From the NCBI GenBank assembly GCA_030295235.1, contig AP026130.1, forward strand, positions 186,001 to 250,000: a DNA stretch of 64,000 bases. Direction: 5' to 3'. The stretch comes from Fistulifera solaris (taxonomy: Eukaryota). Shown here piece by piece: positions 1 to 53,838 of the stretch; the stretch's first letter is position 1, and the number at the start of each line of letters is the position of its first letter. The notes under the pieces are model-generated. The model was not told where the DNA came from, did not search any database, and worked only from the letters and a program-made list of their open reading frames with translations. The position numbers and the translations under genes were made by a program.

Positions 1-214
1 CGCGCCACAACGATGATGAGTGACACGTGACACCGCGTAAACAAAAAGGCAAAACTGAGTCACCATTATGACAATATCCAAGAAAACAACAAGAACTACC
101 GGTGCCTCTAGAGTCTACAAAAGTTGCCATTACTTTATCCTTCCTCTTTTGATCTTTTGAGTTAAAAGCAAAGTCCGCAGACGCAAAGCATAGTCATCCA
201 AGTCGATACACAAG

Positions 215-3200
215 ATGAGAATAAGTCTGTTTTCTTCCACGGCATGTCTCTGCGTCGTATCTTGGATACTTCCTTCGGTCGCCTTTCATGTCGCCCCTTC
301 GAACCGGAACAACATTGCCGTACAAACATTGAGTGGAAGCCCAGTCGCTAGTACAGTTTTGAAGATGGGCATGTTTGAAGATTTCGTGTCGGGTCAAGAC
401 AAAAATGTCCGTCAGCAGGAAAATGCGGCGTATTTACAACAACTCCAAACCCGCGTCGAACGAATCAATGCCCTGGAGTCGTCGGTGGAAGAATTGGGAG
501 ATGATGAATTGATGGCCAAGACGCAAGAATTTAGACAACGCTTATCGCAAGGAGAAGATATTAATGGAAAATTATTGGAAGAAGCGTTTGCGGTGGTCCG
601 AGAAGCGTCCTGGTGAGTAGACTCACTCGTTCTTTTGATGGGCGATGACTCTTTTTCCCTTTTTCTCATTCATACCCGTGTTTCTTAGGCGCGTCTTGGA
701 ACTCCGTCATTACGATGTGCAATTGTTGGGTGGTTTGATCTTGCACGATGGTCGTTTGGCGGAAATGGCCACCGGTGAAGGAAAAACCTTGGTGTCCACG
801 TTACCCGCGTACGTCAATGCCTTGACGGGGCAAACCTCTTTCGTGATTACCGTCAATGACTATTTGGCACGACGAGATATGGAGAAAATGGGACAAATTC
901 ATCGTTTTTTGGGATTGACGGTCGGGTTGGTCCAAGCCAACATGAACGAACAACAGCGCAAACAGGCGTATGCGTGTGATATTGTGTATGTTACCAATAG
1001 TGAATTGGGATTTGATTATTTGCGAGATCATTTGGCGTTGTCGCCAGAGCAGACGGTGTTACCGGGAGGTGCCGGCGAATTTAGTGGGTTTTGTGTTGTG
1101 GATGAAGCGGATTCGGTTTTGATTGATGAAGCACGGACACCGTTGATTGTCAGTAAACAAGTGGCGGCACCGGCAAACAAGTATGCTGCCGCGAATGCTA
1201 TTGCGGGGGCTTTGAAGGCGGGTCTGCATTATACGGTTGATCTCAAAAACAAGAATTGTGTCCTCACCGAAGTAGGTTTCAAAGAATCCGAAGCGGCGCT
1301 GGGAGTAGATTCACTCTTTTCTATTCAAGCCGATGGGTCTGCTTGGGCTCCTTATATCACGAATGCGGTCAAGGCAAAGGAGCTATTTAACAAAGACGTC
1401 GAATACACTATTTTAAAGGATGGTAGTGGAAAGGATATTGGTGTTGGCATTATCGACTCTTTTACTGGTCGCGTTTTGGATGGACGTCGTTGGTCGGATG
1501 GGTTACATCAGAGCATCGAAGCGAAAGAAGGTATCGAAGTCAGTCAACAAAGTAAAGTCATTGCGAAAGTCACCTATCAAGCGCTGTTCCGACAATTTTC
1601 GCGTTTGTCAGGCATGACGGGTACCGCCATGTCGGATGCGCAAGAATTTGAGCAAACGTACGGTTTGAAAGTAGTCCCCGTTCCTACCGCTTTGCCAATC
1701 GCACGTCGCGACTATCCGGATGTTAGTTTTAAAACCCGTGCGGCTGCCAATCGTGCATTGGTAAAGGAAGTTGTGAACGTGGGCGGTGGTCAACCCGGTG
1801 GACGCCCCTGTTTGATCGGAACGACATCGGTGGCTCAGAGTGAAGAACTGATCAAAGCTTTGGAAGAGGAAGGAATTGAGGCCGAGCTGCTGAACGCCTC
1901 ACCCCAGAATGCTCCACGTGAATCCGAAATTATCGCGCAAGCGGGACGTGCGGGTGTCGTCACGGTGGCCACGAACATGGCAGGTCGAGGTACAGACATT
2001 TTGTTAGGTGGATGTCCCACAACCATGGCTCGTATCAAGACGAGATCGGTGCTACTAGAAGAAGGTGTCGTTGCCTCGAAGAAGAACTGGCGCTTGTACC
2101 GCCATCTCCGGACGAGGATTACTACCCTGCAGATGTAGATGAAGATGCTATCACAACGCTTAAAGACGCCGCCAAAGCAATGAAGAGAGTTTTCGCCGAC
2201 GGAGTCAGTGCCATTGAATTGGATGACATTTTGACGGTGGCTTTTGATACGACAGAAGCTGATGACGAACCTGAGTATGTGACACTACTAAGAGAAGCAG
2301 CCGATTCCATTAAAGAAACGTTCAAGGAAGTGCTGGCAGATGAGAAAGCAGCTGTCAAAGCGAAAGGTGGTCTTTACGTTATGGGTACGAATCGTCACGA
2401 AAGTTCTCGTATCGATCTTCAGCTCCGAGGACGTGCTGGGCGTCAAGGAGACCCTGGGTCATCTCGTTTCTTTTTATCCTTCGAAGATGACATGTTTGTC
2501 ATCTTCGGTGGAGACAAGTTGAAAAACATGTTGAATATGTTTCGTGTGAGTGAAGATATGCCCGTAGAAGCCGAACAAGTAACTGAAGCTTTGAATAAAG
2601 TCCAGAACGCAGTCGAGGAAAAGTATCGAGAGATCCGAGCTGAGATTTTTAACTTTGATGATGTCCTCAATAGTCAACGTTCCGTCATTTACAAGCGCCG
2701 CAGAGATATTCTATTTTCCTCACCAGACGAATCACTTCGAATAATCAAGGAATACAACATGCAGACAGTATCAGATATCGTCAAGGGGCAAACGGACAAG
2801 GATGGAACTGTCAACGTCTCCAAGCTGTTGCAAAAGGTGTATCAATTTTTCCCTCTGGTGCAACCGTTTATATCAGAAGATGATCTCGTTGGCAAAGACA
2901 AGAGCACAATTGAGACATTTGTTAAGGTGGCTGTTGAAGAAGTGTTTAACTCAAAACTGGAAACACAACCAAATCTTGTTCGATCAGCCAATTATGCTAC
3001 GCTTGTAACCATGGACAATGCATGGAGTGATCATTTACAAGCAATGGAAAACTTGAAGGAAAGTGTGATTCTTCTCAAATATCAAAACCGTGACCCTGTT
3101 TCCGAGTACAAAAATCAATCATTCAACCTCTTTAAGAATTTGGAAGATACAATGCGTCGGAATGCGGTTTTCTCGCTTTGGCAAAGTCTTGCTGCTAGCG

Positions 3201-3380: not shown

Positions 3381-6250
3381 TCAACTTGGCTGGTCATTTC
3401 TATCGTCGTCGTCGTCGTCGGCGGCGGCGGTGTTCCCTTTTCTGTCGCGGTGCTTTGCTCCCAAAGTAGATTCAACGAAGCGGTCATCGTAACGCAACTG
3501 AGCGGGAACAAAAGAGTTTTCATAGACATGCAGTTCAATTGCTGTTTCGTCTGCCGAGATAAGTCGCTCGAAGGAGCTTTGAATAAATGGGTCGTTGGTG
3601 GAAACGCAATCGATCGCGTCTTTCCTGTGTAAATCTCCTTGGCTAGAATCGTCGATACGAAGTAAGGATGACTGTCTTCGTCGTCGAAGTCCCTTAGTTT
3701 TCTCCAAAGTTGTTGTGGAGGTAGATGTAAGGTGCAGATCCTAGACCACCATCTACTATTTCAAATCCCATAGATTCTGGTACTTCCCTCTCGTCTAAAG
3801 GAACTGACTTTTTTCTTAAAGCTTTCACGACATCTGAGCTTTCATTCTCCATTATTTCGCGAACACAGTATTGCGCCGCCATTCTTAGTTTTTCCAACGC
3901 TGACCACTCTTTCTTAAACATTCCTTGCTGAACCTCTGTTCGCGGTAGAATTCTCCCGAAAAATTGCTGTCCAGGTATAGATTGATCATTGCATGGAATT
4001 TTAGGCAATATCTTAGTAACCTCGGCGTGGGAGCACGGAAGAGGTCTGTCGTGGTGCCGACTTATGTTGAACGAAGGCACTTGCGTGATATAGGTTCCGA
4101 AGGCCAAACACTTGGCATCTTTCAGCTTAAGGGCATCTTGGCGACGATGACGGGCTGACTTCGATTCGTTTTGCAGCTTCTCGATGGCTTTAGAGATCTT
4201 GTCGTCGTGAGATAGGCTGCCAAAGCACGAGTCTACCACCATCATGTGCGGACCAAGCAAGCCGTAAACGATTATCTTAGAGCTCCAAGTCAAAATAAAC
4301 TCCCATGGTAACAATAGGCTCACCAGCCCTGCGACCAAAAAATCCCGCAGTTATCCAGAAAGAAATGACCCCTTCTTCCCATGTGACAAGAATTTTGACG
4401 ACGCGCATGTAGTGACAGTACTTTGCTATGATGCCTTGATATCGTGACAGTCGCTCTAACAGGTCTAAAGGAATGCTAATGTTGGCCTGTTTGGTGTGAA
4501 TAGCCTCGTCGCCGATCGCATTCAGCTTCTGTTGTAGCTCGGTCAGAGTCGCAATATGTTTCTGATCACGCTCGACGCGGTCTCTCCAAGCCTTTTCATG
4601 AGCATCGATCTGTTCCATAAGATGGAAGGGTTCGATACGCTCAAACTGAATCGGAGTCTCGCCTACCAGCAATATTTGTAAGTAGTTTTGAAACGATGGG
4701 CATCCAAACCATGGCGACGGGTGTTGTCGCCTTTGCATCAGTGTGATTAGCATGATCCACCCAACACCCAAGAAGCAAAACGCCGGAAATAGAGAAGGTC
4801 TCTCTAGTAGTTTGCTGCAGGCTAAGAAGAAGACGAGAGAGTGCAATGGAAGGACCATTTCAAAGACTTGTACCTGTCCTCGCCAAAAGATCAGAGATTG
4901 GATACTGTCAACCATGCAATATCCCAACGTGTTTTTATATTCCAGTATTTCATTGATGTATGATCGCACGATCGTGATATCCAACCCTTGTTCCGTGTGA
5001 TCCCCAAATTCTCCGTGACAGGTGTAGTGTAGAACTTTAAAGCTCTTCTCCTTTTCTACATTGACATGAAACTTCGGACGTGATCGGATTCCTGCCACCA
5101 AAGCTTCTCGCTCATTGAAATACTCCAAACGAATTCGTACCGTAATTTGACCAGCCGATATGCGATCGGTGACATGAGAATTCGGATACAAATTATAGGT
5201 GAGTGTGTACTCTGTGTTGCGTTGTAGATTGCTGAGATTGACGACCACCCGTCCCAATGGATCATGATCACCGAGACAATCAAAGTCAAACGCTCCCAAA
5301 TACAGCAAACTGGATGGATGCATGATTTTGATGCAAAATGCTCTCTGGGTCCAGGGCATCCAGTGAGGACTGAGTTCATCGTCAATGACCGGTGTTTGGA
5401 CCATGGCGTCTTCGAACACGGCACAGACAAAACAGTCGGTCAAATTTCCGATACTCCCTCCGATATCGACGTTCGGAAGATCGGAACATTTCAGTACTTC
5501 TAAGTAGAGATGTCCGATGGAACCTGATCCGGCGGTTACCCAATGCTGGGAAGGAGCAAATATGGTTTCCTTGATAGCTTCTTTCGACATGTACGTTGTT
5601 TGTTCGACTCGTTGCGGATCGGCGTGCGGTTTGACGTAAACATTGGAAACATTCTGGACCATTGTCTGCAAAATGGTAGATACGGAACGTCCCAAGTTCT
5701 TCCATTCGTTCGCTTCGGTGACCAATGTGGCGGTGGGTACGGCTTCTCTCCAAGGATTATCGTTGCGATATAATTTCGTCAAAAATGCAATATCACTGTC
5801 GGTAGCCAATCGAAAGCGCATCGTTAAAGTCACATTCTCTGTCACCTGGATATCCATATGCTCCTCTGGCGAAGCTAAAATGGCATCTCCGTTCACTAAC
5901 GCGTGTCCTACTAAACCCGTATCCCACGTGGTCAGATGCAATGGATCTTTTTGTTGGTACCGAACCGTGATTTCCAAAGGATCCAAAGCCAACTCGCGCG
6001 GCGTCGCATCCCACCAAAAAAGTGACTTTTTCGACAACGACCATATTCCACCCTCTTCGGCCGAACCGGTCTGATGTCGAAAGGTTCGTCCAAACGCAAT
6101 TTGGCAAAAATATTGGTGATTGTTGGGGTCAACGCCGGAAATTCCGACAACTTCTCCTAAAAGACGAATGGTTTCATCCTTTGCCAGCAATTCTATTTCC
6201 TGTTCGTACGCTTTCCGTGTGTCGTCACATTGGGTAATGGAAGCCTCCAT
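3381..6250 (-). CDS. C2-domain multi-pass membrane protein (MCTP-like architecture); frameshifts ~4340 and ~3705
   Basis: C2 motif (LYLEVLKCSDLPNVD...TDCFV...TPVIDDELSPHW...FDFD...HDPLGRV) followed by hydrophobic segments. Three consecutive minus-strand ORFs; both ends are approximate. Confidence 0.7.
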
Positions 6251-38192: not shown

Positions 38193-41167
38193 ATGGATGA
38201 TTCTTTTTATAACGAAGAAGAAACACAAGGAACTGGGACTGCTGAACCGCCAGAAGTCTGGCTCGAAGCGACTCCAAATGATCAAGCCTGGATGGAGAAA
38301 TTTGGGAGGCTTGTCCTGTTCCGAGAGGCTCACGGACACTGCAATGTTTCAAAAAATTTCGAAGATAAAGAACTGGGATCATGGGTCGCGAATCAAAAAT
38401 CGTTTCAACGCGCCGGAACGTTGCGCAAAGATCGCGAGAAGTTGTTGAACGAGATCGAATTCACGTGGACGGTGCCGGGCAAACAGGAATCAACCAGTAG
38501 TGTGAAGTTGTCATGGATGGATCGCTACAATCAACTCGTTGCCTTTAAAGAGAAACATGGACATTTTCAGGTCACGAAAGATGACACGCCTTTGAAAAAT
38601 TGGGTCAGTGCTCAGCGATTGGTTTATCGGTCGGGCACCATGCGTCAAGAGCGAAAGGATTTGCTCGACAAAATCGGTTTCGTGTGGAATGCACGGAAGG
38701 GACGCCAGACAACTGCGGCGCCAAAATTCGGCTTGACTTCTGTGCAAAACAATGAAGAGTCGTGGAATCGAATGTTTGAGCGATTGAAGCGTTTTTATCA
38801 GCAACACGGGCATACCGATGTCCAAGCGAACTCGGATGATTTGGAACTCTTGCAATGGGTTTCGCTGCAACGAAATTTACACAAACTGGGGCATTTGGAC
38901 GTAAAGTACGAAACGGCGCTTCGTGAGATAGGGTTGACGTGGGAGCCGCAAGCACTGCAGCATAACGCCCCCAAGAATGATCGCCAAATGTCCCCGACTC
39001 GAGAGGACGAACTCTGGATGTCTCAGTTTCGACTGCTCTGTGAATTTCATCAGCAGAACGGGCACACATGTATACCGCGTACGGGTGAGACCAGTGCGTT
39101 AGCTCAGTGGTGGTTTGTTCAGCAGCGTCTTTTGGAAAGAGGTAGGCTTTCGGAAGACAAGAAAAAGAAACTCGCGAATTTTTTGAGAGACGAGTCGTCG
39201 ATGGCGACAACAGCGATTAACTCAAACAGTACATCGCGTGAACCGCAATTCGCATCAGTAAATGAAGGTTCAACGTTGTTACCAATATTCAGTCATGCAC
39301 AAGACTCGTCAATGGCAGCGGCTTCATTGGAAGTAGGAACGGTTCCTTTCACATCAGTACCAAAAATTGTAGAACCAACATCGGGATTGGTGTCCAGCCA
39401 TGCACTAGGTGCTTCAATAGCAGCACTATCTGCCTCAATAGCAACCGCTTCAATGGAGGCAGATCCAGCTCGTGTTCATGATCTGGTTGCCAGCGTCGGA
39501 GACTCGGGTCAGAAAATTCCAACCACATCATCGACGATTAATACGGCAGATATTTCTTCAGAAGATCCTCGTGTTCGGCTTGCACACCACGCTTCACAAA
39601 CACAATTGATTGCAAACGCGACAGCGGCAGGAGCTTCGTCGACAGCGGTAAAGTCTTCCAACGCCGATAGCGAAACTCCGATAATCATTCAAAAGTTCGC
39701 CATCGGTACGCGGATAGAAAAAAGTTTTTGAGGTGGACGGAGTGTTACAGGTATTTGGTGGTAATGTCTTTTCGTTCGAACAGTTTGAAGAGGACGATGG
39801 TACTCACACGTGGGGGTATATGATCCATTATGATGACGGAGACAAAGAGCATATGTTAGAAGCAGATGTAGAAAAGTATCTGGTTGTCGTAAAGAAACAA
39901 AAGCGTGCAACGAAAAGTCATCAAAACCCAAAGTCATCTAAACGAGCGAAACAAACAAGTCCGTCGAGCAGAGAAGATAACTCAGCGCCGTCCGCGGAGA
40001 CAACCACTGCAACTATTTTGAACGAAGCCGTAGCGTCTGCTGTCCGGGACGCAGCAACAAGCAGCGTTACTACTTCCGCAGGAACTCTAAAAGACTCATC
40101 AATATCTAGAGCAAGCTCGGAAACAAACAAAAAATCTGGAGAAAAAGAGGCTGGACGAGAGTCTCGTGGAAGGGACGCAAAGCTGTTGCGGCCATCTGGT
40201 GAAATTCCGAAGGAACCACGAACCACAGCCGGTGTTAAAGAGAAAGTCTCAGCGAGTTCGAAACCGATGAATGAATTAGATAACGATAGCTCATCGTCAG
40301 AGGATGAGCCTTTGCATTTGCTGGTCCGCAAACCAGCTCGGTCGAGTGGGAGAAAAGCCAATCAAGACGTTCAAAGCGATGGAGTCGATCTGGAGCAGTT
40401 GTATCTGCCAGACAGCCCTGAAGTCCAGACGGGCGCAACGGCGACAAATCAAGAAAAAGATATGGAAAACGAAGTTGTGCGCAAAGATGACTTTGTGCGA
40501 CGGTCTTTAAATCAGCAATATCAAACTGTCGCAAATGATGCAAATCAAGAGAAAGCGATACAGCACGAGCTTGCTGATAAGGACCATCGGTCTCGGATGC
40601 CTGTTAGCCAGCAATATCATACTGCCCCAGAAAATTCGAATCAAGAGAAAGAGATACAAAAACAGATTTCTGGTAAAGATCAACAGTCACGATTGCCGCT
40701 GAACCAGCAAAATCAAAGTGTAGCAAAGATTGCGAATCAAGAAAAGAGAAACAACACGAGCTTGTTAATAAGGATCAGCTGATACATTTACCAGTGAACC
40801 AGCAAAATCAAAATGTTGCAAAGAAACCGAATGAAGCGAAAGAGATGATTCGGCACGAGATAGTGGACCTTGTCGATAATGACGATGATGAAGAGGAGGA
40901 CGAGGAATCAACGATAGCTAACTCACGGCAAACCTCGAATGAAACGGTGAACCCTCCTCAAAGGTTTCCAAAGGGTACGACTATTTCGAGAAAGTTTTTG
41001 ATCTGAGTGACAACGAACGGGAAAAGTCATATGGGGGTAAAGTTATTGACTTTGTATACCTAGCGCTGGAGAAAGACTGGTATTACTTCATTCAGTACGA
41101 CGATGGAGACACGGAGTTTATGGACGAATGGGAAGTAGCAAAATTCTCGGCGTTGTTGCGGAGATAA
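38193..41167 (+). CDS. Helicase-associated (HA) repeat x4 + two Tudor-like (YDDGD) domains, paralog 1 (frameshifts ~39722, ~40750, ~41000)
   Basis: W..KF..LV.F...HGHCNV....LG.WV..Q...L..I.F.W repeats; FAIGTRIEK...YMIHYDDGDKEHM; C-terminal FPKGTTISRKF...FIQYDDGDTEFM. Confidence 0.82.
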
Positions 41168-41643
41168 GAAGCAAATCGTTCTCCAGATCTGTTGAATGCG
41201 GTGGAAGAAGAGTGACTGACAGTTTGAGTTCTGTTTGAATGAATTCTGCCTGGCGCTCACTGAATAAAAGAGGCAAAAAGTGAAGCGACGTTGTGGTGTT
41301 ATGGTTCTGTACACAGCTGTAGGAAGGGATAGCAACTGAAATTGACATTCACATCTAACAAGCACTTGTATGGAGAAGCTAAATAGCAGCACGGCTGATC
41401 CTTGCTTGGCAAAAGATCCCTGTTTTACTAAACAACAATGTTAACTTTTGACGGGACAGAAATCAAGAAGAAAGATAGTGGATGATAGCAATAATCGCAC
41501 CGTTATTGCTTGCTTCGAATTTCGAAAAAGAAACCATGATGATTTCATTCATTCGTTGCCGTGATCATTATGTTCCCTTCTCTCCAACAAGGAAAATAAG
41601 TTGTGCTCGTTTATTGCATAAACACCTGACAGATAATATCAAT

Positions 41644-44175
41644 ATGAATATCCGTCCTTCGAGCGAGGAAGAAACACCGCAAGTAACGGCGAGGCACGAA
41701 ATGCCAGAAGTCTGGCTCGAAGCGACTCCGAATGACAAGATCTGGATGGAGAAATATGGGAGACTCGTGGCTTTTCGAGAGACACGCGGGCATTGTAATG
41801 TTTCGAAAAGGTTTGAGGATGATAAGGAACTGGGATCGTGGGTTGCGAATCAAAGATTGGCATACCGCGCAGGGACTCTACGGAAAGACCGCGAAAAGCT
41901 GTTAAACAAGATAGAGTTTTCGTGGGCTTCAACTAAAACTACAACGTCTTGGATGGATCGCTACAATCAGCTTGTTGCTCTTAAAGAGAAAAACGGCCAC
42001 TTCAAGATCACAGCAGATAACTTGCCTCTGAGAAATTGGTTGAATACCCAGAGAATGTTTTACAGGTCGGGCACATTACGTCAAGAGCGCAAGGATTTGC
42101 TCGACGAAATCGGCATGGTATGGAATGTAAGAAACGGACGCCATAGTCCTGTCGCGCCGGCACCGAAATTCGATTTGACTGCTCTGCAGAATAATGAAGA
42201 ATCGTGGAATCGAATGTTTGCGCGATTGAAGGAATTTTATCAGCAAAATGGGCACACCGATGTTCTAGCGAACTCGGATGACTTGGAACTCTTGCAATGG
42301 GTTTCGCTGCAACAAAACTTGCACAAACTAGGGCGATTAGATGAAAAGTATGAAAAGGTGCTTTGTGAGATCGGATTTTCATGGGAGTCGCAGTTACAAC
42401 AGGATAAAAATGCCACCAAGAATGATCGCCAAATGCCATTGACCCGAGAGGATGAACTTTGGCTGTCCCAGTTTTTACTGCTTTGTGACTTTCAACAGCA
42501 ACATGGGCACACGAATGTGCCACATACGAGCGAGACCAGTGCGTTGGCTCAGTGGTGGCTTGTTCAGCAACGTCTCATGAAGAGAGGTAGACTATCGGAT
42601 GAAAAGAAACAGCAGCTCCGACGTTTCTTACGGGCCGAGTTGGCGATGACAGCAGCCTCTTCGTCGAGCAAAACATCTCGTGAACCACAAGTCGCATCTG
42701 TAAACAATGTTCCAACAACAGGACCAGTTGGTAGTCATGCATTAGTTTCGGAAGCTCACGGTGTCCAGTTTCTAAATGGGGGTCGCAATCAAGGGTAAAG
42801 GCGACAGCGGCAGAAGCTTCGTCGGCTGCGGTGGCGTCTTCCGATGTCGATGCACCGAGGATTATCCAGAAGTTCGCCATAGGTACTCGGATAGAGAAGG
42901 CGTTTGAGGTGGACGGAGTGTTGCAGGTATTCGGTGGCAATATCTTTTCGTTTGAACAGTTTGAAGAGGACGACGGTACTCACACGTGGGGTTATATGAT
43001 CCACTATGACGATGGCGATAAAGAACACATGCTTGAAGCAGATGTAGAGAAGAACCTCGTTGTCGCGAAGAAACTCAAGCGTGCGACGAAAAGTCACCAA
43101 AATTTGAAGTTGTCGAAACGAGCGAAACGAACGTGTCCATTTAGCAATGACGCACATTTAGCGCCGTCCGCGGAGACAACAATCCCATTTATTTCGAATG
43201 AAGCCACCGCGTCCCCTGTCCAGGACACAGGAACAAGCAATGATAAAAATTCCACAGAAACTCTTAGAGACTCATCAAAGTTTAGAGCAGAAACAAAGAA
43301 AGCATCTGGAGAAGATGAGGCTGGACGAGAATCTCGTGTAAGGGACGCAAAGCTGTTGCGGCAACCACCAAACACAGCTTCTCAAGAGAAAGTACTAGCG
43401 AGTTCGAAATTGATGAATAAATCAGAAAACGATAGCTCATCGTCAGAGGATGAGCCTTTGCATTTGCTGGTACGCAAACAAGCTCGGCCGGGTAAAAGAA
43501 AAGCCAACCAAGACAATCAAAGCGGTGGAGCTGATCTGGAGCAGGTGTATTTGCCAGATTGCCCTGAAGTCCAGACGGGTGCAACGACAATAAATAATCA
43601 AAGAGCGATACAAGATGAAGCCGTGCGCAAGGATTACATTTTGCGCTTGCCGATTAGCCAACAAATCAACGAAGGAAAAGAGAGTCACGGTGAATCTGTG
43701 GATAAGGATCATCAGCTGCGAATGGATGTCAGGCATCAATATCAAAGTGCTGCAAATCATGCATCTCAAAAGAAAGCGATACAACAAGAGCTTGCTGATA
43801 AGGATCAGCAGTTGCATATGCCGGTGAGCGAGGAGTATCATTGCACCGCAAAGAAAGCGAATAAAGCGAAAGAGATTCAACATGAAATAATGTACCTTGT
43901 CGACGATGAAGAGCCAACGATAGCTGATCCGCCGCAAACTTCGATTGAAACGGTGAATCATCCTCCCAGAAATTCCCGACGGGCACGACTATTTCGAGAA
44001 AGTTCTTTGATCTGAGTGACAATTAACGTGAAAGTCATACAGGGGTAACGTCATTGACTTTGTTTACCTGACACGGGAAAAGGGCTGGTTTTATTTTGTT
44101 CAGTACGACGATGGAGACACGGAGTTCATGGACGAACGGGAGGTAGCAAAATTCTCGGCGTCAATGCAACGTTAA
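41644..44175 (+). CDS. HA repeat x4 + two Tudor-like domains, paralog 2 (frameshifts ~42780, ~43970-44030)
   Basis: High nucleotide identity to paralog 1 (e.g. CCAGAAGTCTGGCTCGAAGCGACTCC; CAGTACGACGATGGAGACACGGAG). Confidence 0.82.
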
Positions 44176-44669
44176 AGCGGGTCTTTTGAGAGCTTTGACC
44201 GATCTGGTCTGGAAGCAGAACTCACAATCGGCCAGGTAACGTGTGTTTTTATATATATATAGAATAGGTAACGATGATAAGAATGTTTCTACGATTATTA
44301 AGGTACGCCAGCACCGACGTGATGGTCGTTTTGCTTTGTATAGTTTCTAGAAGCAAAAATCATCATTTTTAGTGAGCTACTCACTCTATAATCTTTCATC
44401 CGAGCTACTTCATTGTGGAAACATTTGAAGAAAGCGATGATCCATCAAAAGCTAACCTTAGTTTTTTCGGGATAGTCGCGCGAAGGCGCGCACTTTGTGC
44501 GATTGGGAAAAATCTTCGGCGAGCGCGAGGCGCCAAATAAGAAACGAATGACAAAAAGAAATCTCGATGCAATTTTAGTGCAAACATTAATAGAAAAGAA
44601 CGACCTGCAAAACCATTCCTTGAGTGTAAAAAAATAAAGACTTTTGATTCTTGTTTACAACTAGGCGGG

Positions 44670-46321
44670 ATGGATGCGGAAAGAGGAAACGCGCGAGTCG
44701 ACGCTAATCTGGATGAAGCCTGGATGGAAAAGTACCGGCGGCTCGATGCGTACAAACAGGTACACGGCCATTGCCGAGTTCCCCAATCGTATGAGGATCG
44801 TTCGCTGGCTTGCTGGGTTGGAAATCAGCGATCGATGCAACGAGCAGGCACCTTGCGGGACTATCGCGAGCGTTTATTGAATGATTTGGGTTTCACTTGG
44901 AGCAAGCCACGCGCGATCTCAGAACTCCAAATTTGGATTGAGAAATACAATCAACTGATTACATTTCACCAAGAAAATAGACGCTTTGATGCCTCACCCG
45001 CGGAGGACAAGGATTTGAACACCTGGGTGAGCACTCAGCGAGAGCAGTACAGGTCGGGAACCTTGCCGAAAGATCGACAGGAATTGTTGGAAAAGATTGG
45101 CTTTGTTTTTTGCGGGAACGCCAGCAACCAGCGAGGTGATACGGATAAGGCGATGCATACAATTCACGAAAATGAACGAGCATGGAATCAAATGTTTGAT
45201 CGGTTGTGCGCATTTTCGCTGCAACATGGACACACAGATGTTGCAGCCGGTGTAGATAACCAGGATCTAGCAGAATGGGTCTCTTTACAACGAAGCTTGC
45301 ACAAAGAGGGACGCCTTGATGAGAAGCACATTGAGGCTCTCACTGAAATTGATTTCTCGTGGGAGACTGCGGACGAACTAGCGGAGGACGACCAAAAAGT
45401 GCCCAAGACCGATGAAGAAGTGTGGATGTCACATTTTGAGTTGCTCTGCAATTTCAAAAGGCAGCATGGGCACATGCTTGTTCCGCGGAGTGGCGAAACA
45501 AGTACATTAGCCCAATGGCTTTTTGCTCAACAACGACTTCTTTACAGTGGTATGTTGTCGGAAGACAGGATGAAACTGCTCGCAGGCGCCTGGATTACTG
45601 AATCGTTCGAAATGGTAGCGGCCACTTTGGCTACTAAGCAGAGTGATGTACCGGGAGTAAAATGCGATGAAGATGTCGTTGCAAGCACCGGTAACCCGTC
45701 ATCGAGTAACATTGTGTCGGTGGGCGTAAAAGTGAACCACCCGCTGCTGAAGCCACGACTCATCTATCCGCGCCTATTGTTCCAGCAAGAAGTCATGCAA
45801 AGGAAGCGACACTGCCTCCTAAGATTGAGAAGGAGACACCAGCGGTAGGTCAAAAGTTTACGATCGGTACACGGGTCGAAAAGCTTTTCAAAGCAAGTGG
45901 AGGGTTGCAGGCATTCGGTGGGACTGTCATTGCCTTTGAGGAGTACGAAGAGAAAGATGGCACAGCAGCATGGGCGTACTTGATTCTTTATGACGATGGC
46001 GACCAAGAGCACATGCTTGAGGCCGACGTGGCAAAGCATCTTGCTGGCTCAAAACGAAAGAAGCGTTCGGTGAAGAGTCCGCCGAGACCCAGGTCACCCA
46101 AGCGACAGAAACAGCCGAAAGCGACAAGTTCCGATGTAGCGCAAATTGTTCCAAGCCCGGTCAGGAGCAGTCGAGGCTGTGGGAAATCTGTTGTAGACGT
46201 CGCAGGAAACAAGATTCCTGGAATGGTAGCTAGTGCTCGCGTTTCGCGCGTTCGCGATACAAAGCTACCTCCGTTTACCACCAGCAAATCTGCAGTGAAG
46301 GGAAAAGCTTCGGTCAAGTAG
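44670..46321 (+). CDS. HA repeat x4 + one Tudor-like domain, paralog 3 (diverged; frameshifts ~45760-45900)
   Basis: Four HA repeats (HGHCRVP, HGHTDV, HGHMLVP), then FGGTVIAF...YLILYDDGDQEHM. Confidence 0.78.
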
Positions 46322-47657: not shown

Positions 47658-48614
47658 TTAGCCCCCAAATTGATTCTCGTAAATCATTTCTTCCCGCGGA
47701 TAACGTCGACTCCGCCAATCAAGATTCGTCATTGGTGATGCCGCTCGGCCGGTCGCAATCACCAACGGAATCGCGTAACGACTGGGAATCCGCAAGACGC
47801 GACGAATGCCGGGTCCATCGATGCCTTCCATGGGTATCGTCGCCAAGCCCCGTGACGAACAGGCCAACATGTACGTCATGGCCACCAACATGGCGTTCTT
47901 CGTCGACCATGTTTCGGTACTACTCAACGTGGGAAGCGTGGGTGGAAGTCGTAAGATGCGAGTCACGATATTCAGCATCGACATGGCCCATCGAAAGGAG
48001 AACGAAAGGATCGCTGATAGAATTCGTGGCAATGGATATCCGGAACTGAAGACAGCAATGTAGAACGCCAACAGTTTGGTCATTTGGCGATTTTGCTGTT
48101 GCAAAAACTGTGAAAAACGGGGCAATGTTTTCAACACTTTCCGATCGGCGAGAAAGACGGCCGTGCAATCGGCATCACGGACACGGTCCGCATTCGGACC
48201 CAAACAATACCGCGAAAGCGCCAACTTTTGTTCCGGATTATGTACCATAACGACTTTATAGGGTTGTGTGTTGAAGGAAGACGGCGCCAGTCGCGCCATA
48301 TCGATGCATTCGAGTGCCTGGCGAATGATTTCGGGATCCGAGGGTGATGCCGTAACGCATTCGGGCACTGTAGCATTGGCACGTTGAAAGCTTTTGCAAG
48401 CGAATCTTGACATGACGGCTTGATCGAACGACAATATATTCCTATTATTGCTGCTTTGCGATGTATCTGCTGCCGAAGACGAGAAGAGACTGGATCTGTA
48501 GGGCAAGCGAGGCGCCACCGAATAGCATTCGCCGATGGGAAACTGTGTCAGAAGAATGGCTAGCCCTACGAGCCATGCTATCAGCTCCAGTCGCCTTCGA
48601 ACAAACATTGCCAT
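47658..48614 (-). CDS. Nitroreductase-family flavoprotein with signal/plastid presequence
   Basis: SRFACKSF, ARLAPSSFNTQPY, MLACSSRGLATIPMEG and IPLVIATG. Confidence 0.88.
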   Translation of the reverse strand: MAMFVRRRLELIAWLVGLAILLTQFPIGECYSVAPRLPYRSSLFSSSAADTSQSSNNRNILSFDQAVMSRFACKSFQRANATVPECVTASPSDPEIIRQALECIDMARLAPSSFNTQPYKVVMVHNPEQKLALSRYCLGPNADRVRDADCTAVFLADRKVLKTLPRFSQFLQQQNRQMTKLLAFYIAVFSSGYPLPRILSAILSFSFRWAMSMLNIVTRILRLPPTLPTLSSTETWSTKNAMLVAMTYMLACSSRGLATIPMEGIDGPGIRRVLRIPSRYAIPLVIATGRAASPMTNLDWRSRRYPREEMIYENQFGG

Positions 48615-48837
48615 CTTATTATTGTGTTCGAGGATAAAAAGTAAATAGACCGTTTATTATCTATCTATTGTTAATTATGTGTTTGACGACGCGACGATCG
48701 CCATCATTATTTTTTATCATCGTCCCCGTCGCGCAGTGGGGTATAAGGTCTCCATAGTAGGGTTAGAAATAATAAATCTGATGTTCCGGCTCCCAGAAAA
48801 TCTGGAAGTGTATTCACACTTCGTTTCATTACGACTC

Positions 48838-48858
48838 ATGACTGAAAAGTAGTCGTGG
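48838..48858 (-). repeat. Dispersed intergenic element, copy 4 (CCACGACTACTTTTCAGTCAT on minus)
   Basis: 18/21 match to copy 1, reverse orientation, ~220 bp upstream of the piggyBac-like ORF. Confidence 0.6.
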
Positions 48859-49078
48859 ATAGATGAGGTACTCCGTAACATTTTTCAACTATACGGAGCA
48901 AAGTAGTAAATACAGTTGTCATTTTTGTAGCAGACGGAAACTCTGAAGTGCTGTGTCTGCCCATCAACGCCTCGCTCGCGTTTATTATTATCATCGCGTC
49001 GCGTCGGCATTTTGCAAAACGCATTGTTGCAATTGAAAACATCACACGTTGCCGTAGAAGACACCTTGTTCCAGCACA

Positions 49079-52036
49079 ATGACGACCCAAACGGATTGGC
49101 TGGCTCAAAAGATCCTACAGGAATGTCAGGCCCGCACGGAAGGATGGAACGAAGACCTCTCCGACAACAAGCCCTGGAAGCTGCTCACTGAAAAGGAATT
49201 TGCCGAGCAATTTTTAACCACAAGTCTCCATGATTCGTTTCGACAAGCGGCCCAAAGTATTCCGGAAGAAGTGTTTCGTGTCGGCAATGACTACTCTCAG
49301 TCGACCGACGCCTTTCGCGTGCTCTTTTCGGACGATGCGATTCAAAAGTTAGTCGATTGCACGAACGGTTATTTACGGCATAATGGAATTTTTCCCGAGA
49401 CGAATATCCAAGAATATCGGGAGTTTCTCGCGCACAAATTTCTGCTCAGTCGTTATCGATGCGAAGCTATCTTTCGCGATATGTTGCCCATGCTGGCGAA
49501 CCAGCACGGCTTTCACGCCATGAATTGGCAACGTTTCCAGAATCTGTACAAATGCACGCATGGATATCCCATCGAGGAACATTCAAACCATGATAATGAT
49601 GTGTGGCAGCAGCGGAAACCAGTGCTTCGGAAATTGAATGAATTAGAGCGTTTACTATTCGAACCTTCGATGAAGTTCATGTTGAACAAGAAATCCGGAA
49701 TCCTGGCAGTCGACGAAGAGCGCTTGAACTGGCGAAGAAGGGAGGAGTACGACTATGAGGACAGAGAACCGCCCGCCAATGGACCGGCCTGTGACCGTAT
49801 TGTTGACGCACTCACCGGTGTCGTGTTTGGGATGCGGCTTCGTGTTCGGGGCGAATCGCCGCGAGAAAATGTCGAGGAACTATTACAGACATTGCCTCCC
49901 ATCGCTGCGCCCGACCAAGTTCGAGTCTGTTTCGATGAAGAGTACGGCAACATGCGGTTTCTGACGAAAAATGTCTGGGAACGAAACTTGGACGTTATCA
50001 ATCGTGCGAGACAGTATTATTCCAATCATCCGTTTATTACAGAAGAGGAGATCGCGAGTAAACGTAATGAATGGAAGGAGGCGAACATAACGGATCAAGT
50101 TCAGCAAGAGGCGTATGATAAGTTTGAGCCGTTTATTTTGGATGATAGGTCGAATCTCCGAATTGTAACTAAAACTCTACCCAGTGATGAGACGAAACGC
50201 ATCCGAGCAACTGCGTTGAGAGACAGTTTTGATCCTTTGTCTACCTGCAAGCTTCATCGCATCTTTTCGAGCGGAGGGGACGAAATGTCCGGTGTATGGG
50301 TGGCGAAAACGGAAGCGACGACTGTTCCATACAAAACTCTCTTCAAAAATCGATCCTGTCCATTGCCCATAGAAACGCAATTACTTGAGACCTGCCATCC
50401 GATCACTTTGATGCAGGAAGCAGCGGATTGGTTATGTCAGCGAGCGTTTCGGTTATCAGGCTCTCTCACCGGACTTTTTCTTGAAAGTGAGACATCGGAG
50501 CAGCCGGGAGTGGACTTGAGAGTTGTGCGTATGCGACAGTGTTTGGACTCATGGTTTGGGTCGCAGCGGCCAACTATAGCAATGCCAGAAGAGGATGAAT
50601 ATGAAGAAGAGCCTATTATCAATGAAATTATGAGGTTTCCTTGGATCACGGAAGTGTACGAGATTGGCCTTGTGGAATGGAAAAGGGCGCCATTTATTGC
50701 TGTTTCTCCGGATGGAGTGGCCGAGTTTTGCCACAATGATGCATCGCATCATGCATGCATTTTGATAAAGAAGAGAACAGATTGGTCAGACATAGAAGAT
50801 GCCGAAGAAGTAGCATCGATTCATGGGTCAGTTGTGCATTGTAAGTTTGGTGATGACGTGTTCAAGGATTGTGTTCCTTTGGGTGATCGCCACGAGTTGC
50901 TGCAGCATGCAATAGTGACTGGCCTTGACTATGGCATTTTCGTCACAAGCAAACAAGAAATTGGAGACGAAACAAAGATCGTTCAAGTCGTTGTTGTTGC
51001 GATCCAAGCGAGCGACAAATATGAAGCTTCATTATCAATTCTGAGTTTAGGCAAAGACCTACTTGGATGGCTATTCGAGCCAGCCATCATGGCACGATGC
51101 TATTTAGTCGAGTCTAGTTTTCCAGAATGGTTACCGAGCGCATCACAGGAGGCAAACATCATTCGAAATCACTACAAACTATGGGTCGCCCAGTACAAAC
51201 AGATCCGAAACGACGGTGTCAAGTACAACCCCACTCTTCCTCTTGAATCATACGAGTATTCCGAGCAGCACCTGTACAACCTGGCAAGAAAGTCATTAAA
51301 GAAACATAGAGCTGATCGCAAGGACCTTTCCATTGACTTAGATGTTTCAGATGAAACAAGATATGTGTTTGAAATGATTGATGCGGTTTTCTACAACCAC
51401 TGGAGGTTTGCGCAGGGAATTGATAAAGTCTTACCATTCTTGGAGGCTAATGTAACGAAGACGATTTATGAAAAAATAAGTGAGAGAATGTTGCAGCTTG
51501 AATTGTCCAGCCATGTGTATAAAATGCCATTGGATTTCCTTGCCAAGTCCGCAATCGATAAACGAATTGGGAAGGAAGTTGGGAGTCGCATGAGGCAACA
51601 ACTTGTTGTGAGCGAGAAAGAAACAGACACGGATGTAATGAAAGATGTCGAAAAGTTGAAACGCAAACGCAAGTTCCCTGTTGGAAAGAATCGACCGCAG
51701 ATATTCCATCGTGAGCCAGCCTTGAAGAGGCTTCGATTAGCGACAACACCAACTCATATGCCAGTAAACAAAGGCAAAGAACACTACGGCAACTTATGTG
51801 CTTTGTGTGGTGTTTGTAGGACCAGCGTTTGGTGCGAGATCTGTTGTGTCCCCCTGTGTTCGGGAAGGCATTTTACTTTGTGGCATTCCGCGGATGACCT
51901 ACTTGAGACTCATGTAACAGAGAAAGCAGAATCACTAAAAGCAAAAGTAAAAGCACCACCAGCAGCAGCAGCAAGTAACACACAAGATGATGAAGAAGAT
52001 GCCTCGGACGCCCAAAGCGACGAGAGCAATAAGTGA
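49079..52036 (+). mobile_element. piggyBac-like (PGBD) transposase-derived ORF with an embedded YqaJ/lambda-exonuclease domain and C-terminal Cys-rich zinc ribbon
   Basis: PGBD N-terminal motifs FRVLFSDDAIQKLVDCTN, EYREFLA and MNWQRF. Acidic sites AVDE (49712) and CFDEEY (49934). YqaJ motifs QEAADWLCQRAFRLSGS, GLV...PFIAVSPDGV and LQHAIVTG. C-terminal CALCGVCRTSVWCEICCVPLC...HF..WH. No TIR or TTAA ends found. Confidence 0.72.
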
Positions 52037-52263
52037 GACCAGCATAATACAGTAGGTCATTCAGGCTAGCGGAAACTCCAGTGACTGTGCAAAGCCTATT
52101 TCACAAATACTTAACGAATATTAACAAACTCATTATTATTTGTTCTATGCGCAAATCTTTGAAATTAAAAATTTAGCACGTGCAATCTATTTTACAGGAG
52201 CTTGGTCCATGATGCAAGATTCCGGGTGCGATGGAATTCCCAGAAGTTTCATCGTTCGATCGC

Positions 52264-53838
52264 TTAGATGCGCTTCTTGCTTTCTTCCGGGTTGGAGAAA
52301 ACGGCATCCGGCTTGGCCTTCTTGTATCCGCCAATGAGCGACTTGATGGTGGTACCAAGAAGCTTCAGGTCATCGAGGGGGTTGTTTCCCTGCACCGTCT
52401 TGTACAAGTACGAGTCGAAAGTGACTTGTTGCACGTACTTGGACTCGCACAATTCCACAAAGGCTTCGCGGGCTCCGTTGTTGGAGTAGAATACTCGCTG
52501 GAGGATGTCAAGAACGGCGTAAGTGGGTCCGTACAAGTTGTCGTACTTCTTGATGTAAGTACTTTCAATCTCGGCCTGAGAGGGAAGACGAGATCCACCC
52601 TTCATGAGGGCCACAATTTCTTCGGCCGCCATGCGTCCCGACTTGGCGGCAAAGTAGATACCTTCACCCGAGCACTTGGTGACGTAGCCCGCGGCATCAC
52701 CGACTAAGGCGATACGTCCTTGAACACGACGAGGACGGTAATGCTCGGGGATGGGGTGGGCCTCGACCTTAATAATCTTTCCTCCGGCAATCTTGTCACC
52801 GGCACGGTCGCGGATGGCCTTTTGGTATTGCTTAATGGCCGGACGGTTGACCACGGTTCCAGTTCCGACACCGACGTGATCGTACTTGGGGAAGACCCAT
52901 CCGTAGAAATCGGGAGACACATCATCACCGACATACATCTCCGCCATCTCCTCGTAGAATTTCATCTTCTCATCGGGGATCTTAATGCGCTCCTGGAAGG
53001 CAATGGCAAAGTTGTACAAACCGGCATCCATGGCCTTGGCCACACGCGAGTTGGCACCATCGGCACCGACAATCACATCGACATCCATGGTCTTGGCCAC
53101 ACCGGCCTTGGATCCTTCCGTGTATTCTTGGTAGTGGATGGTGTATCGGCTGTCTTCGTTGGTTTTGTGGTCCGCGGGGACATCGATGCTGGTCACCAAA
53201 CCGTTGACAATCTCCGCACCGTACTTTTGGGCACGGTCACGGAGGTATTGGTCCAAGATTTCACGACGGCACATACCAATGTATTCATCCGGCTTCAATG
53301 TGCTTCCGATAGAGACCTCAACACCCGTGGGAGACACCAGATTCATTTGACGGACCTGGAGAAGAAACAGAGAACGAAGAATGAGATTACGTCAGCGAAC
53401 GATCATGACCGGAGTCGAACGCTCGAGCGACATTGATTCAGAGCAAGACAGTCTCGAGCACGACAGGTGTGTTCTGATGTCTCCGATAGAGAGAAAAACG
53501 GTACAAGCGTCATAAACAACAGAAGCGCATCGTACCTTACGGTCCACCACCGACTCCGGAAGGTCGAATTCGCCCACCATGCAGAGAGGAATGGCTCCAC
53601 CGCACGGCTTGGCGTTGTCGAGCTTTCGCTCAATCAAAACGGTATCAATTCCCTTCTCTTGAGCAAAGATTTCCGCCGCGCAGGCACCCGAAGGACCTCC
53701 ACCGACGACGGCCACCTTGTATTTCATGTCGAGGGCCGACGACGAGGTGGGGACGCCGACGAGGCTTCTTCCGGTGAAAGAAGAGAAGGCTGACGCGGAA
53801 GCGACAACTCCAGCGAGAGTAACAAGAGTGAACTTCAT
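52264..53838 (-). CDS. chlP: Geranylgeranyl reductase (plastid; intron 53356-53535)
   Basis: ASAF presequence; VAVVGGGPSGA, KPCGGAIP, GADGANS, YGWVFPK and GDAAGYVTKCSGEGIY. The intron joins VDRK-VRQM. Confidence 0.96.

Follow-up and report, generated by a model that had tools for sequence, protein, structure and literature searches.

The 64-kb window of Fistulifera solaris contig AP026130.1 analysed here (by the window we mean the whole stretch of 64,000 nucleotides) has as its longest open reading frame (ORF) a single open, intronless frame of 985 aa at 49079..52036 on the + strand, stop codon included. The initial annotation of this DNA had proposed one intact, intronless ORF of this length, and we found it uninterrupted. 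The frame encodes a relative of the piggyBac transposases in which a nuclease domain of the lambda-exonuclease/YqaJ fold appears to be nested within the catalytic core. With a probability of roughly 70%, we read the gene as a host-retained descendant of a distinct piggyBac-superfamily lineage with this nested nuclease, its product being a catalytically dead DNA-binding or scaffold protein. The parts of the protein, delimited by profile matches, structural alignments and a predicted model, are arranged along the ORF as follows.

49079..52036, + strand: the ORF (protein P0001, 985 aa), intact and without an intron, colinear with its relatives over the whole length.
49220..49690, + strand: residues 48-204, a helical N-terminal part, with the Pfam match starting at residue 76 and the VIA alignment to piggyBac 6x67_C at residue 48 (chain residue 117); we take it to be the piggyBac-like dimerisation/DNA-binding region, a name that comes from piggyBac structure work.
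49691..50038, + strand: residues 205-320, first part of the predicted RNase H-like core, with D212 (nt 49712-49714) and D286 (nt 49934-49936).
50039..50386, + strand: residues 321-436, two helices and a four-stranded sheet, marking the start of the insertion region that separates the second Asp from the third.
50387..51187, + strand: residues 437-703, the nested lambda-exonuclease/YqaJ-fold domain as predicted.
50711-50713, 50762-50764 and 50768-50770, + strand: the nuclease sites D545, L562 (at the catalytic Glu position) and K564, respectively.
51188..51664, + strand: residues 704-862, where the piggyBac core resumes, with K741 (nt 51299-51301) and then long helices.
51665..51784, + strand: residues 863-902, a basic linker (KLKRKRKFPV...), 75% identical to the ortholog P0002.
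51785..51898, + strand: residues 903-940, a Cys/His-rich zinc domain of piggyBac type at the C-terminus, with 82% identity to the ortholog.

All of the motifs listed in the initial annotation could be located in the translation, and their positions were checked. The first acidic site, AVDEE, places D212 at nt 49712, and the second, CFDEEY, places D286 at nt 49934. The nuclease module carries MQEAADWLCQRAFRLSGS, IAMPEEDEYEEE and IGLVEWKRAPFIAVSPDG, the last of which contains D545, together with CILIKK (L562 and K564) and LLQHAIVTG, and the N-terminal YqaJ-type motif Q-x3-W ... R-x-[ST]-G-[ST] is represented by QEAADWLCQRAFRLSGS. In YNLARKSLKKH, K741 occupies the column of the third Asp, and the Cys/His cluster CALCGVCRTSVWCEICCVPLCSGRHFTLWH spans residues 907-936 (nt about 51797-51886). 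A chance ORF is ruled out by the Pfam match, by 376 relatives and by neutral simulations in which 0/200 frames stayed open. The motif resemblances themselves are not fortuitous, because they are accompanied by the Pfam DDE_Tnp_1_7 match, by matches to the piggyBac and lambda-exonuclease folds, and by matches of the family profile to sequences in the PDB.

Among the sequence profiles, Pfam DDE_Tnp_1_7 (PF13843) matches residues 76-269 with an E value of 6.3e-11 and 42.6 bits (cutoff 22.4), through profile positions 3-189 of 349, and thus with its N-terminal half alone. Pfam YqaJ (PF09588) and a zinc ribbon gave no match at E<=10, whether with the whole window protein, residues 401-720 or residues 721-985. 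The domains named by the initial annotation were recovered by Pfam in part: the transposase domain in the window protein itself, YqaJ in its relatives, and the ribbon in no search of the window protein. Because the window protein has no Pfam YqaJ match of its own, its YqaJ assignment rests on the relatives and on the predicted fold. A phmmer search with the single window protein against PDB sequences returned chance-level matches alone (E 0.14). A family profile, made from an alignment of ten members (A1), matched the lambda-exonuclease homolog LHK-Exo (3syy) with an E value of 4.3e-5 when searched against the same sequences, aligning the Q..W..R..[ST]G[ST] stretch to the LHK-Exo N-terminus, QRTEEWFAARLGKVTAS. 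In lambda exonuclease, the Arg of the Q..W..R motif binds the 5' phosphate. The same profile matched the C-terminal Cys-rich domain of piggyBat (9c0f_C, residues 521-577, E 0.0031), and the VIA alignment to this chain extends to model residue 941, in agreement with the piggyBac-type C-terminal ribbon proposed earlier. Weaker matches were obtained to Mimivirus R354 (E 0.027) and to piggyBac 6x67 (E 0.11).

The AlphaFold2 model of the window protein, computed from an alignment of 94 rows, taken from the 151 proteins that the homolog searches listed, has a mean predicted local distance difference test score (pLDDT) of 90.6 and a predicted template modelling score of 0.83. A Foldseek search of the PDB with this model returned, in order, piggyBac 6x67_C (E 4.8e-7), piggyBat (E 3.9e-6), lambda exonuclease 6m9k_B (E 3.8e-4, template modelling (TM) score by target 0.61) and Tn5 transposase. 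By VIA-align, the best piggyBac alignment (6x67_C, Z 25.2, root-mean-square deviation (rmsd) 4.3) pairs 371 residues, model 48..831 with chain 117..521, while piggyBat 9c0f_C (Z 22.7) pairs with model 52..941 and reaches chain residue 572. Within that span lies the match to lambda exonuclease 3sm4_C (Z 14.2, rmsd 3.8, 208 of 229 residues, model 437..703), which is accompanied by 1avq_A (Z 14.1) and LHK-Exo (Z 13.6). Tn5 transposases align with Z about 15-16 (best 15.9), retroviral integrase cores with Z about 6.5-6.7 over model 205..784, and Cas4, Dna2, MGME1 and RecE with Z 7-8.4 or lower. The ranges of the integrase, piggyBac and nuclease alignments place the start of the RNase H-like core at about residue 205 and its completion beyond residue 704, with the nuclease nested in it.

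Along the model, the strands with D212 and D286 are followed by the helices and sheet, the nuclease, the strand and helix with K741, the long helices and finally the zinc domain. The strands predicted in the first part of the core are residues 208-215, 237-243, 249-254, 281-285 and 304-309; the two helices and the four-stranded sheet occupy residues 322-411 in the secondary structure of the model, and YNLARKSLK is carried by a strand (722-727) and a helix (728-747). The four-stranded sheet may be the counterpart of piggyBac's own insertion domain, given the number of residues aligned to the piggyBac chain (371; chain 117..521), and the basic linker at 863-902 is a possible nuclear localisation signal by analogy with piggyBac. 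The intact relative encoded by the metagenome locus L002 gave a closely similar picture (pLDDT 90.1; piggyBac Z 25.0 over 35..827, lambda exonuclease Z 15.7 over 433..692). The models thus support a lambda-exonuclease fold nested in a piggyBac-type DDD core, between the second and third Asp, where the initial annotation had placed a YqaJ-like module; the fold occupies residues 437-703, and in the relatives the third-Asp motif follows the nuclease. As leads only, the ESM Atlas returned PGBD4-like clusters by structure over residues 49-825 (TM score by row 0.51-0.54, from a poor Atlas model with pLDDT 0.48) and, by features, a top eukaryotic cluster at 0.94 whose commonest phylum is Oomycota (phylum known for 2 of 56 members); a SAP domain occurs in 20% of the members of the nearest feature cluster.

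The window protein belongs to a sizeable family. Word-indexed homolog searches, with the protein and with alignments as queries, found nothing beyond the query and one ortholog (P0002). An exhaustive HMMER search yielded 376 proteins at E<=1e-3, of which 146 reached E<=1e-10 and 39 reached E<=1e-30. A Pfam scan of 20 relatives (E<=0.01) found YqaJ in 10, DDE_Tnp_1_7 in 4, both in 2 and no family in 8. All six of the closest full-length relatives (P0003-P0007 and P0011) carry YqaJ above the gathering score (23.3-37.6 bits, cutoff 22), and the YqaJ matches of these six align to window residues about 440-620. Each of the two metagenome ORFs tested, from L002 and L004, has YqaJ (E about 2e-8) and, in the same frame, DDE_Tnp_1_7 (E about 3e-6), both of them above cutoff; L004 also shows a weak match to Pfam zf-Tnp_2 (E 0.002-0.003, below cutoff). 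The eight more distant members of the ten-sequence alignment present the motifs in the same order: VVDDEL with the first Asp, FDRGYGK with the second, GVSPDG and VEIKTR with the nuclease D/E/K, then, after the nuclease, YNKGKxGLDKNTE with the third Asp, and a Cys-rich end. In the source annotation the relatives are called hypothetical or 'YqaJ viral recombinase domain-containing'. Those with named hosts come from diatoms, namely Nitzschia inconspicua (the P0013 cluster and P0020) and Mediolabrus comicus (P0014), and from Plasmodiophora brassicae (P0108). In P0007, the conserved body is preceded by an extra N-terminal extension of ~300 residues (1-300), low-complexity and rich in Pro, Lys and Thr; different N-terminal DNA-binding modules may have been acquired within the family.

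Both predicted catalytic centres are well conserved in the family. Among those rows of the 94-row alignment that are not gapped at the site in question, the transposase columns read D in 48/50 (first Asp), 47/51 (second) and 44/48 (third), and the nuclease columns read D in 51/54, E in 49/55 and K in 52/56; the catalytic identity of these Asp residues is inferred from their motifs and their positions in the model. The search suggested earlier for relatives with both sites intact was successful, as 14 of the 18 rows that cover all six positions read DDD and DEK, P0108 of P. brassicae among the rows so read. The four exceptions are the window protein (D,D,K; D,L,K), P0002 (N,D,Q; D,E,K), P0123 and P0144.

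Judged from their sequences, the relatives of the window gene behave as transposons. The P0013 cluster, formed at 90% identity, comprises 14 proteins, all of N. inconspicua, with 10 different lengths among their listed contigs. The L002 locus has a single frame of 1082 codons between imperfect inverted ends, and a 10-mer that occurs eight times there, all within 58-161 and 3937-4012, against an expectation of 0.04. In L005, the coding region of which is split into three frames, a different 10-mer occurs seven times, six of them near the two ends (0.35 expected). The repeats on both sides of the ORFs are palindromic, subterminal and specific to the element; their units are TTACGTCCCGTA in L002 and TACCTTGACA in L005:

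L002, 57-167 and 3936-4013: subterminal repeats on both sides of the ORF.
L005, 138-211 and 5078-5100: subterminal repeats on both sides of the ORF.

These repeats are likely to be transposase binding sites, the motif of which would differ from element to element. The alignment of the L002 ends is imperfect and begins about 5 nt in from the left end of the contig; no TTAA was seen at the apparent boundary. The right-hand repeat of L005 lies 25 nt from its contig end.

The copy in the window presents a different picture. It sits in short intergenic gaps between host genes, with a DUF2358 gene farther upstream:

47658-48614, - strand: nitroreductase-family gene, 464 nt from the ORF.
48615..49078, no strand: upstream intergenic flank of 464 nt, without a detectable transposon terminus.
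52037..52263, no strand: downstream intergenic flank of 227 nt, likewise without a detectable terminus.
52264-53838, - strand: geranylgeranyl-reductase-like gene with one intron, 227 nt from the ORF.

Between the 464-nt and 227-nt flanks we found no inverted repeats beyond chance, in keeping with the earlier remark that no termini are visible: the longest word that they share is a 9-mer rich in A and T, and words of at least 9 nt also arose in 69 of 200 shuffles. No pair of TTAA at a repeat boundary was found in the flanks of the ORF, nor any second copy or fragment of the family within the 64-kb window. The upstream flank, in the putative promoter region, holds both arms of a 13-nt inverted pair, TGACGACGCGACG and CGTCGCGTCGGCA, which are 92% complementary and lie 300 nt apart at 48684-48696 and 48997-49009. 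This pair is not a transposon terminus, because it does not flank the gene.

The ortholog P0002 (1013 aa) is 57% identical to the window protein over 99% of the query, colinear, and open throughout its frame. It has lost two of the three transposase Asp residues (N,D,Q) and retains the nuclease D,E,K. A separate record, P0152, is 98% identical to the window protein and likewise has K741 and L562; one contig was seen for each member of the 90% cluster to which the window protein belongs. The fragment P0010 is 59% identical to the window protein, and so about as close as P0002, and keeps the catalytic Glu. In a tree of the 25 long family members, short fragments excluded (a quick IQ-TREE run under LG+G4), the window protein, P0152 and P0002 form a clade with a Shimodaira-Hasegawa-like approximate likelihood ratio (SH-aLRT) support of 100 and a long stem (0.76). 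This clade is sister to the intact P0003 and to P0012 (support 99) and nested among intact members. The third Asp is absent in both species, the first Asp is lost in P0002 alone, and the nuclease Glu is lost in the window species alone. Read from the orthologs, this pattern suggests an order of decay in which the third Asp would have gone first; afterwards one species would have lost the first Asp and the other the nuclease Glu.

Despite these losses, the frame has been maintained. When the ORF was evolved neutrally in 200 runs of a simple simulation to one lineage's share of the divergence (76% identity to the start), the frame remained open in none of them, with a mean of 14.6 stops, and the protein has therefore been kept by selection. 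The identity to P0002 varies by region, from 82% in the zinc domain and 75% in the basic linker to 61% in the nuclease and 54-57% in the core segments; the structured regions other than the zinc domain and linker fall at 51-63%, below both. The presence of K741 at the third Asp means that the window protein is a derivative of the family and not an active member, its complete DDD triad being absent (D212, D286, K741). The PD-(D/E)xK triad is incomplete as well, with D545 and K564 present and Leu at position 562; the window row is the only one with Leu at this column in the alignment. The initial annotation had read the Glu as Leu and the third Asp as lost, and the comparison with 49/55 E and 44/48 D in the family bears out both readings. 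Its preference for a domesticated gene is also upheld, by the lack of terminal inverted repeats (TIRs), the host genes on both sides, the full-length ortholog at 57% identity and the K741 and L562 replacements.

The window protein is thus probably catalytically dead, to judge from its residues, and the role that we consider fairly likely for it is a non-catalytic one in DNA binding or scaffolding. Such a role is favoured because a near-invariant residue has been lost in both catalytic centres and because the parts concerned with DNA binding are the most conserved. Our analyses show to which family the protein belongs and how it is built, which residues it has lost, that its gene lacks termini and has an ortholog, and that the frame has been maintained. 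Several observations weigh against the reading as a host-retained, catalytically dead protein of nested architecture. D212 and D286 are retained in the window protein, and both P0002 and P0010 carry the full D-ExK nuclease triad, so that the function retained in the clade may involve the nuclease, with L562 being either compensated or recent. Predicted models and the ranges of alignments, rather than solved structures, underlie both the nested topology and the equivalence of the third Asp. Of the 349 positions of the DDE_Tnp_1_7 profile, the match extends to position 189 in the window protein and to about 243-253 in the relatives, and in Pfam searches with the C-terminal parts of the L002 and L004 ORFs the part of this profile with the third Asp found no match. 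Finally, the contigs of L002 and L005 stop at or near the repeats, and no exact terminus or target duplication was found in them.

The main rival, on account of the nuclease triad kept by the ortholog, is that the gene is domesticated and still enzymatic, as a DNA-targeted nuclease acting, for example, in repair or programmed rearrangement, the loss of the Glu being compensated or partial. Its appeal lies in P0002 and P0010, which keep the nuclease D,E,K, the former without two of its three transposase Asp residues, and in the nuclease domain, which at 61% is among the better-conserved regions between the orthologs; in the window protein, D545, K564 and the Q..W..R..SGS motif persist. However, position 562 is Leu where 49 of 55 rows have Glu, the same Leu is found in the 98% variant P0152, and no acidic residue adjoins the position, so that we regard an enzymatic role of the window protein as unlikely. 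Much less probable still is that the gene is not domesticated at all, being either an old immobilised copy with a frame open by luck or the transposase of a larger element with distant ends. The family is indeed mobile elsewhere, as seen from the N. inconspicua cluster and the repeats of L002 and L005. Nevertheless, a frame of 985 codons is open here, in the 98% variant and in the 57% ortholog, against 0/200 under neutrality; the nitroreductase, geranylgeranyl reductase and DUF2358 genes lie nearby, the first two at gaps of 464 nt and 227 nt, and neither inverted repeats beyond chance in the flanks nor a second copy in the 64 kb was found.

A different kind of objection concerns the identity of the domains: the central domain might be a generic PD-(D/E)xK-like or an unrelated domain rather than kin of YqaJ and lambda exonuclease, and the transposase might be IS4-like or of the Kolobok type. 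The failure of Pfam YqaJ to match the window protein at E<=10 and the Tn5 matches at Z about 15-16 could be cited in its favour. On the other hand, lambda exonuclease and LHK-Exo (Z 13.4-14.2 over about 190-210 residues) score above Cas4, Dna2, MGME1 and RecE, and YqaJ lies above cutoff in the close relatives. In addition, piggyBac and piggyBat (Z 25.2 and 22.7) score well above Tn5 (15.9), the family named by Pfam is DDE_Tnp_1_7, and piggyBat is also what the C-terminal zinc domain matches. We therefore regard this alternative as largely refuted. Membership of Kolobok in particular was rejected, the Pfam and fold matches being of the piggyBac/IS4 type.

Active members of the lineage would use the DDD centre for piggyBac-type cutting and joining of the element ends. 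Their built-in nuclease would resect the broken ends on the 5' strand and so favour repair of the donor site by recombination. In the intact family, both the D-ExK triad and the N-terminal Q..W..R..[ST]G[ST] motif of the nuclease are conserved. Another role of the nuclease could be second-strand cleavage, as by TnsA, the PD-(D/E)xK protein of Tn7. The window protein itself would work in the nucleus through the DNA-binding surfaces of the transposase, without cutting DNA. A more speculative extension, which we put forward tentatively, would be an undescribed piggyBac clade of diatoms and Plasmodiophora with an in-core 5'-3' resection nuclease, coupling excision to recombinational repair and copy gain; the doubly inactivated window gene would then encode a factor that binds DNA sequence-specifically and might, for instance, repress its active relatives at their ends or recruit other proteins there.

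Several features elsewhere in the window were also recorded. At 38193-45848 (+), three of four large ORFs (38193-39731, 41482-42798 and 44670-45848) carry four repeats each of the Pfam HA domain (PF03457, 'Helicase associated domain'), with E values of 1e-57 to 1e-60, and the fourth (42831-44015) has no Pfam match. The stretch, which looks like a tandem cluster of HA-repeat genes, coincides with strong positive GC and AT skew. The geranylgeranyl-reductase-like gene has an intron of 180 nt at 53354-53533, with borders CT..AC on the + strand and thus GT..AG on the gene strand, and in run X2 a spliced contig connects 53353 with 53534. No run listed as carrying this DNA is on record as RNA. The assembled contigs of run X1 span genes and intergenic DNA alike and those of run X2 cover the reductase gene alone, so that they are uninformative on expression of the 985-aa ORF. 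In run X1, contigs over 52368-52774 of the reductase gene include a second version that differs at nine bases, and at four of these the other letter accounts for about 33 of 55 depth units, which suggests a second allele or haplotype. In the same run, the transposase-derived coding region shows no differences, and a 1-nt insertion is found upstream of it at 49009.

The closest known relatives in structure are the canonical transposases piggyBac and piggyBat (6x67 and 9c0f). The window protein shares their Pfam family, the fold over piggyBac residues 117-521 and the order of domains, namely a DNA-binding region, an RNase H core arranged as D-D-(insertion)-D, a helical region and a Cys-rich zinc domain. 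An insertion domain between the second and third catalytic Asp is present in piggyBac and in Tn5. In contrast to piggyBac and piggyBat, the insertion region described here holds a predicted lambda-exonuclease fold of ~270 residues between these two positions, and the window copy is without the third Asp, terminal repeats and a visible TTAA duplication. Several piggyBac genes have been domesticated, including PGBD1-5 of vertebrates and, in ciliates, PiggyMac with its catalytically dead PiggyMac-like partners. The window gene resembles these as an immobile, conserved host gene without TIRs, some of them having lost the DDD triad and yet remaining under selection; the piggyBac clade from which it stems is a different one that occurs in diatoms. 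To our knowledge, no domesticated gene of the PGBD or PiggyMac type has a nuclease nested in its core. For transgenesis piggyBac is a main tool, and the way in which its single active site deals with both strands determines its seamless excision. A natural piggyBac lineage with an in-core lambda-exonuclease domain would be a testable case of a transposase processing its own breaks.

Among other transposons, the nearest architectural precedent, going by the excerpts of its literature available to us, is Dada, in which an exonuclease domain is likewise nested in the DDE/DDD core after the second acidic residue; Dada belongs, however, to another transposase superfamily, and its nuclease is of the DEDDy 3'-5' type, in contrast to the PD-(D/E)xK and presumably 5'-3' nuclease here. 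KolobokE, as presented in the available parts of its report (PMC9587614), also joins a DDD/E transposase to a PD-(D/E)xK lambda-exonuclease-like nuclease, but the nuclease sits downstream from the transposase domain rather than inside it, and the superfamily is different; Kolobok makes TTAA duplications as piggyBac does, according to the same parts (PMC9587614). ISL2EU, of the PHIS superfamily, is a cut-and-paste transposon that brings a YqaJ-type exonuclease, and thus substantiates the earlier statement that YqaJ nucleases accompany some DNA transposons; in the sections at hand of the two reports, its YqaJ protein is a separate second ORF and its transposase is Harbinger-like with a THAP domain (PMC4122938, PMC4482050). 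The accessible portions of diatom genome papers speak of elements 'weakly related to piggyBac' or count PiggyBac as one of the transposable element classes, and these portions do not mention a nuclease domain (PMC2806351, PMC5859163).

A search of the literature found no description of a fusion between piggyBac and a YqaJ/lambda exonuclease; supplements, Repbase and Dfam were outside its scope, and the fusion may have been catalogued earlier. The window gene would be a new combination of known kinds, namely transposases of piggyBac type, lambda-type exonucleases carried by transposons, and transposases that have been domesticated. Nested as predicted, the nuclease would represent a third route by which transposons have recruited a lambda-type nuclease, after the separate ORF of ISL2EU and the downstream fusion of KolobokE, and a second case of an exonuclease within a DDE core, after Dada. 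The window gene itself would add a case of transposase domestication in a diatom-related lineage.

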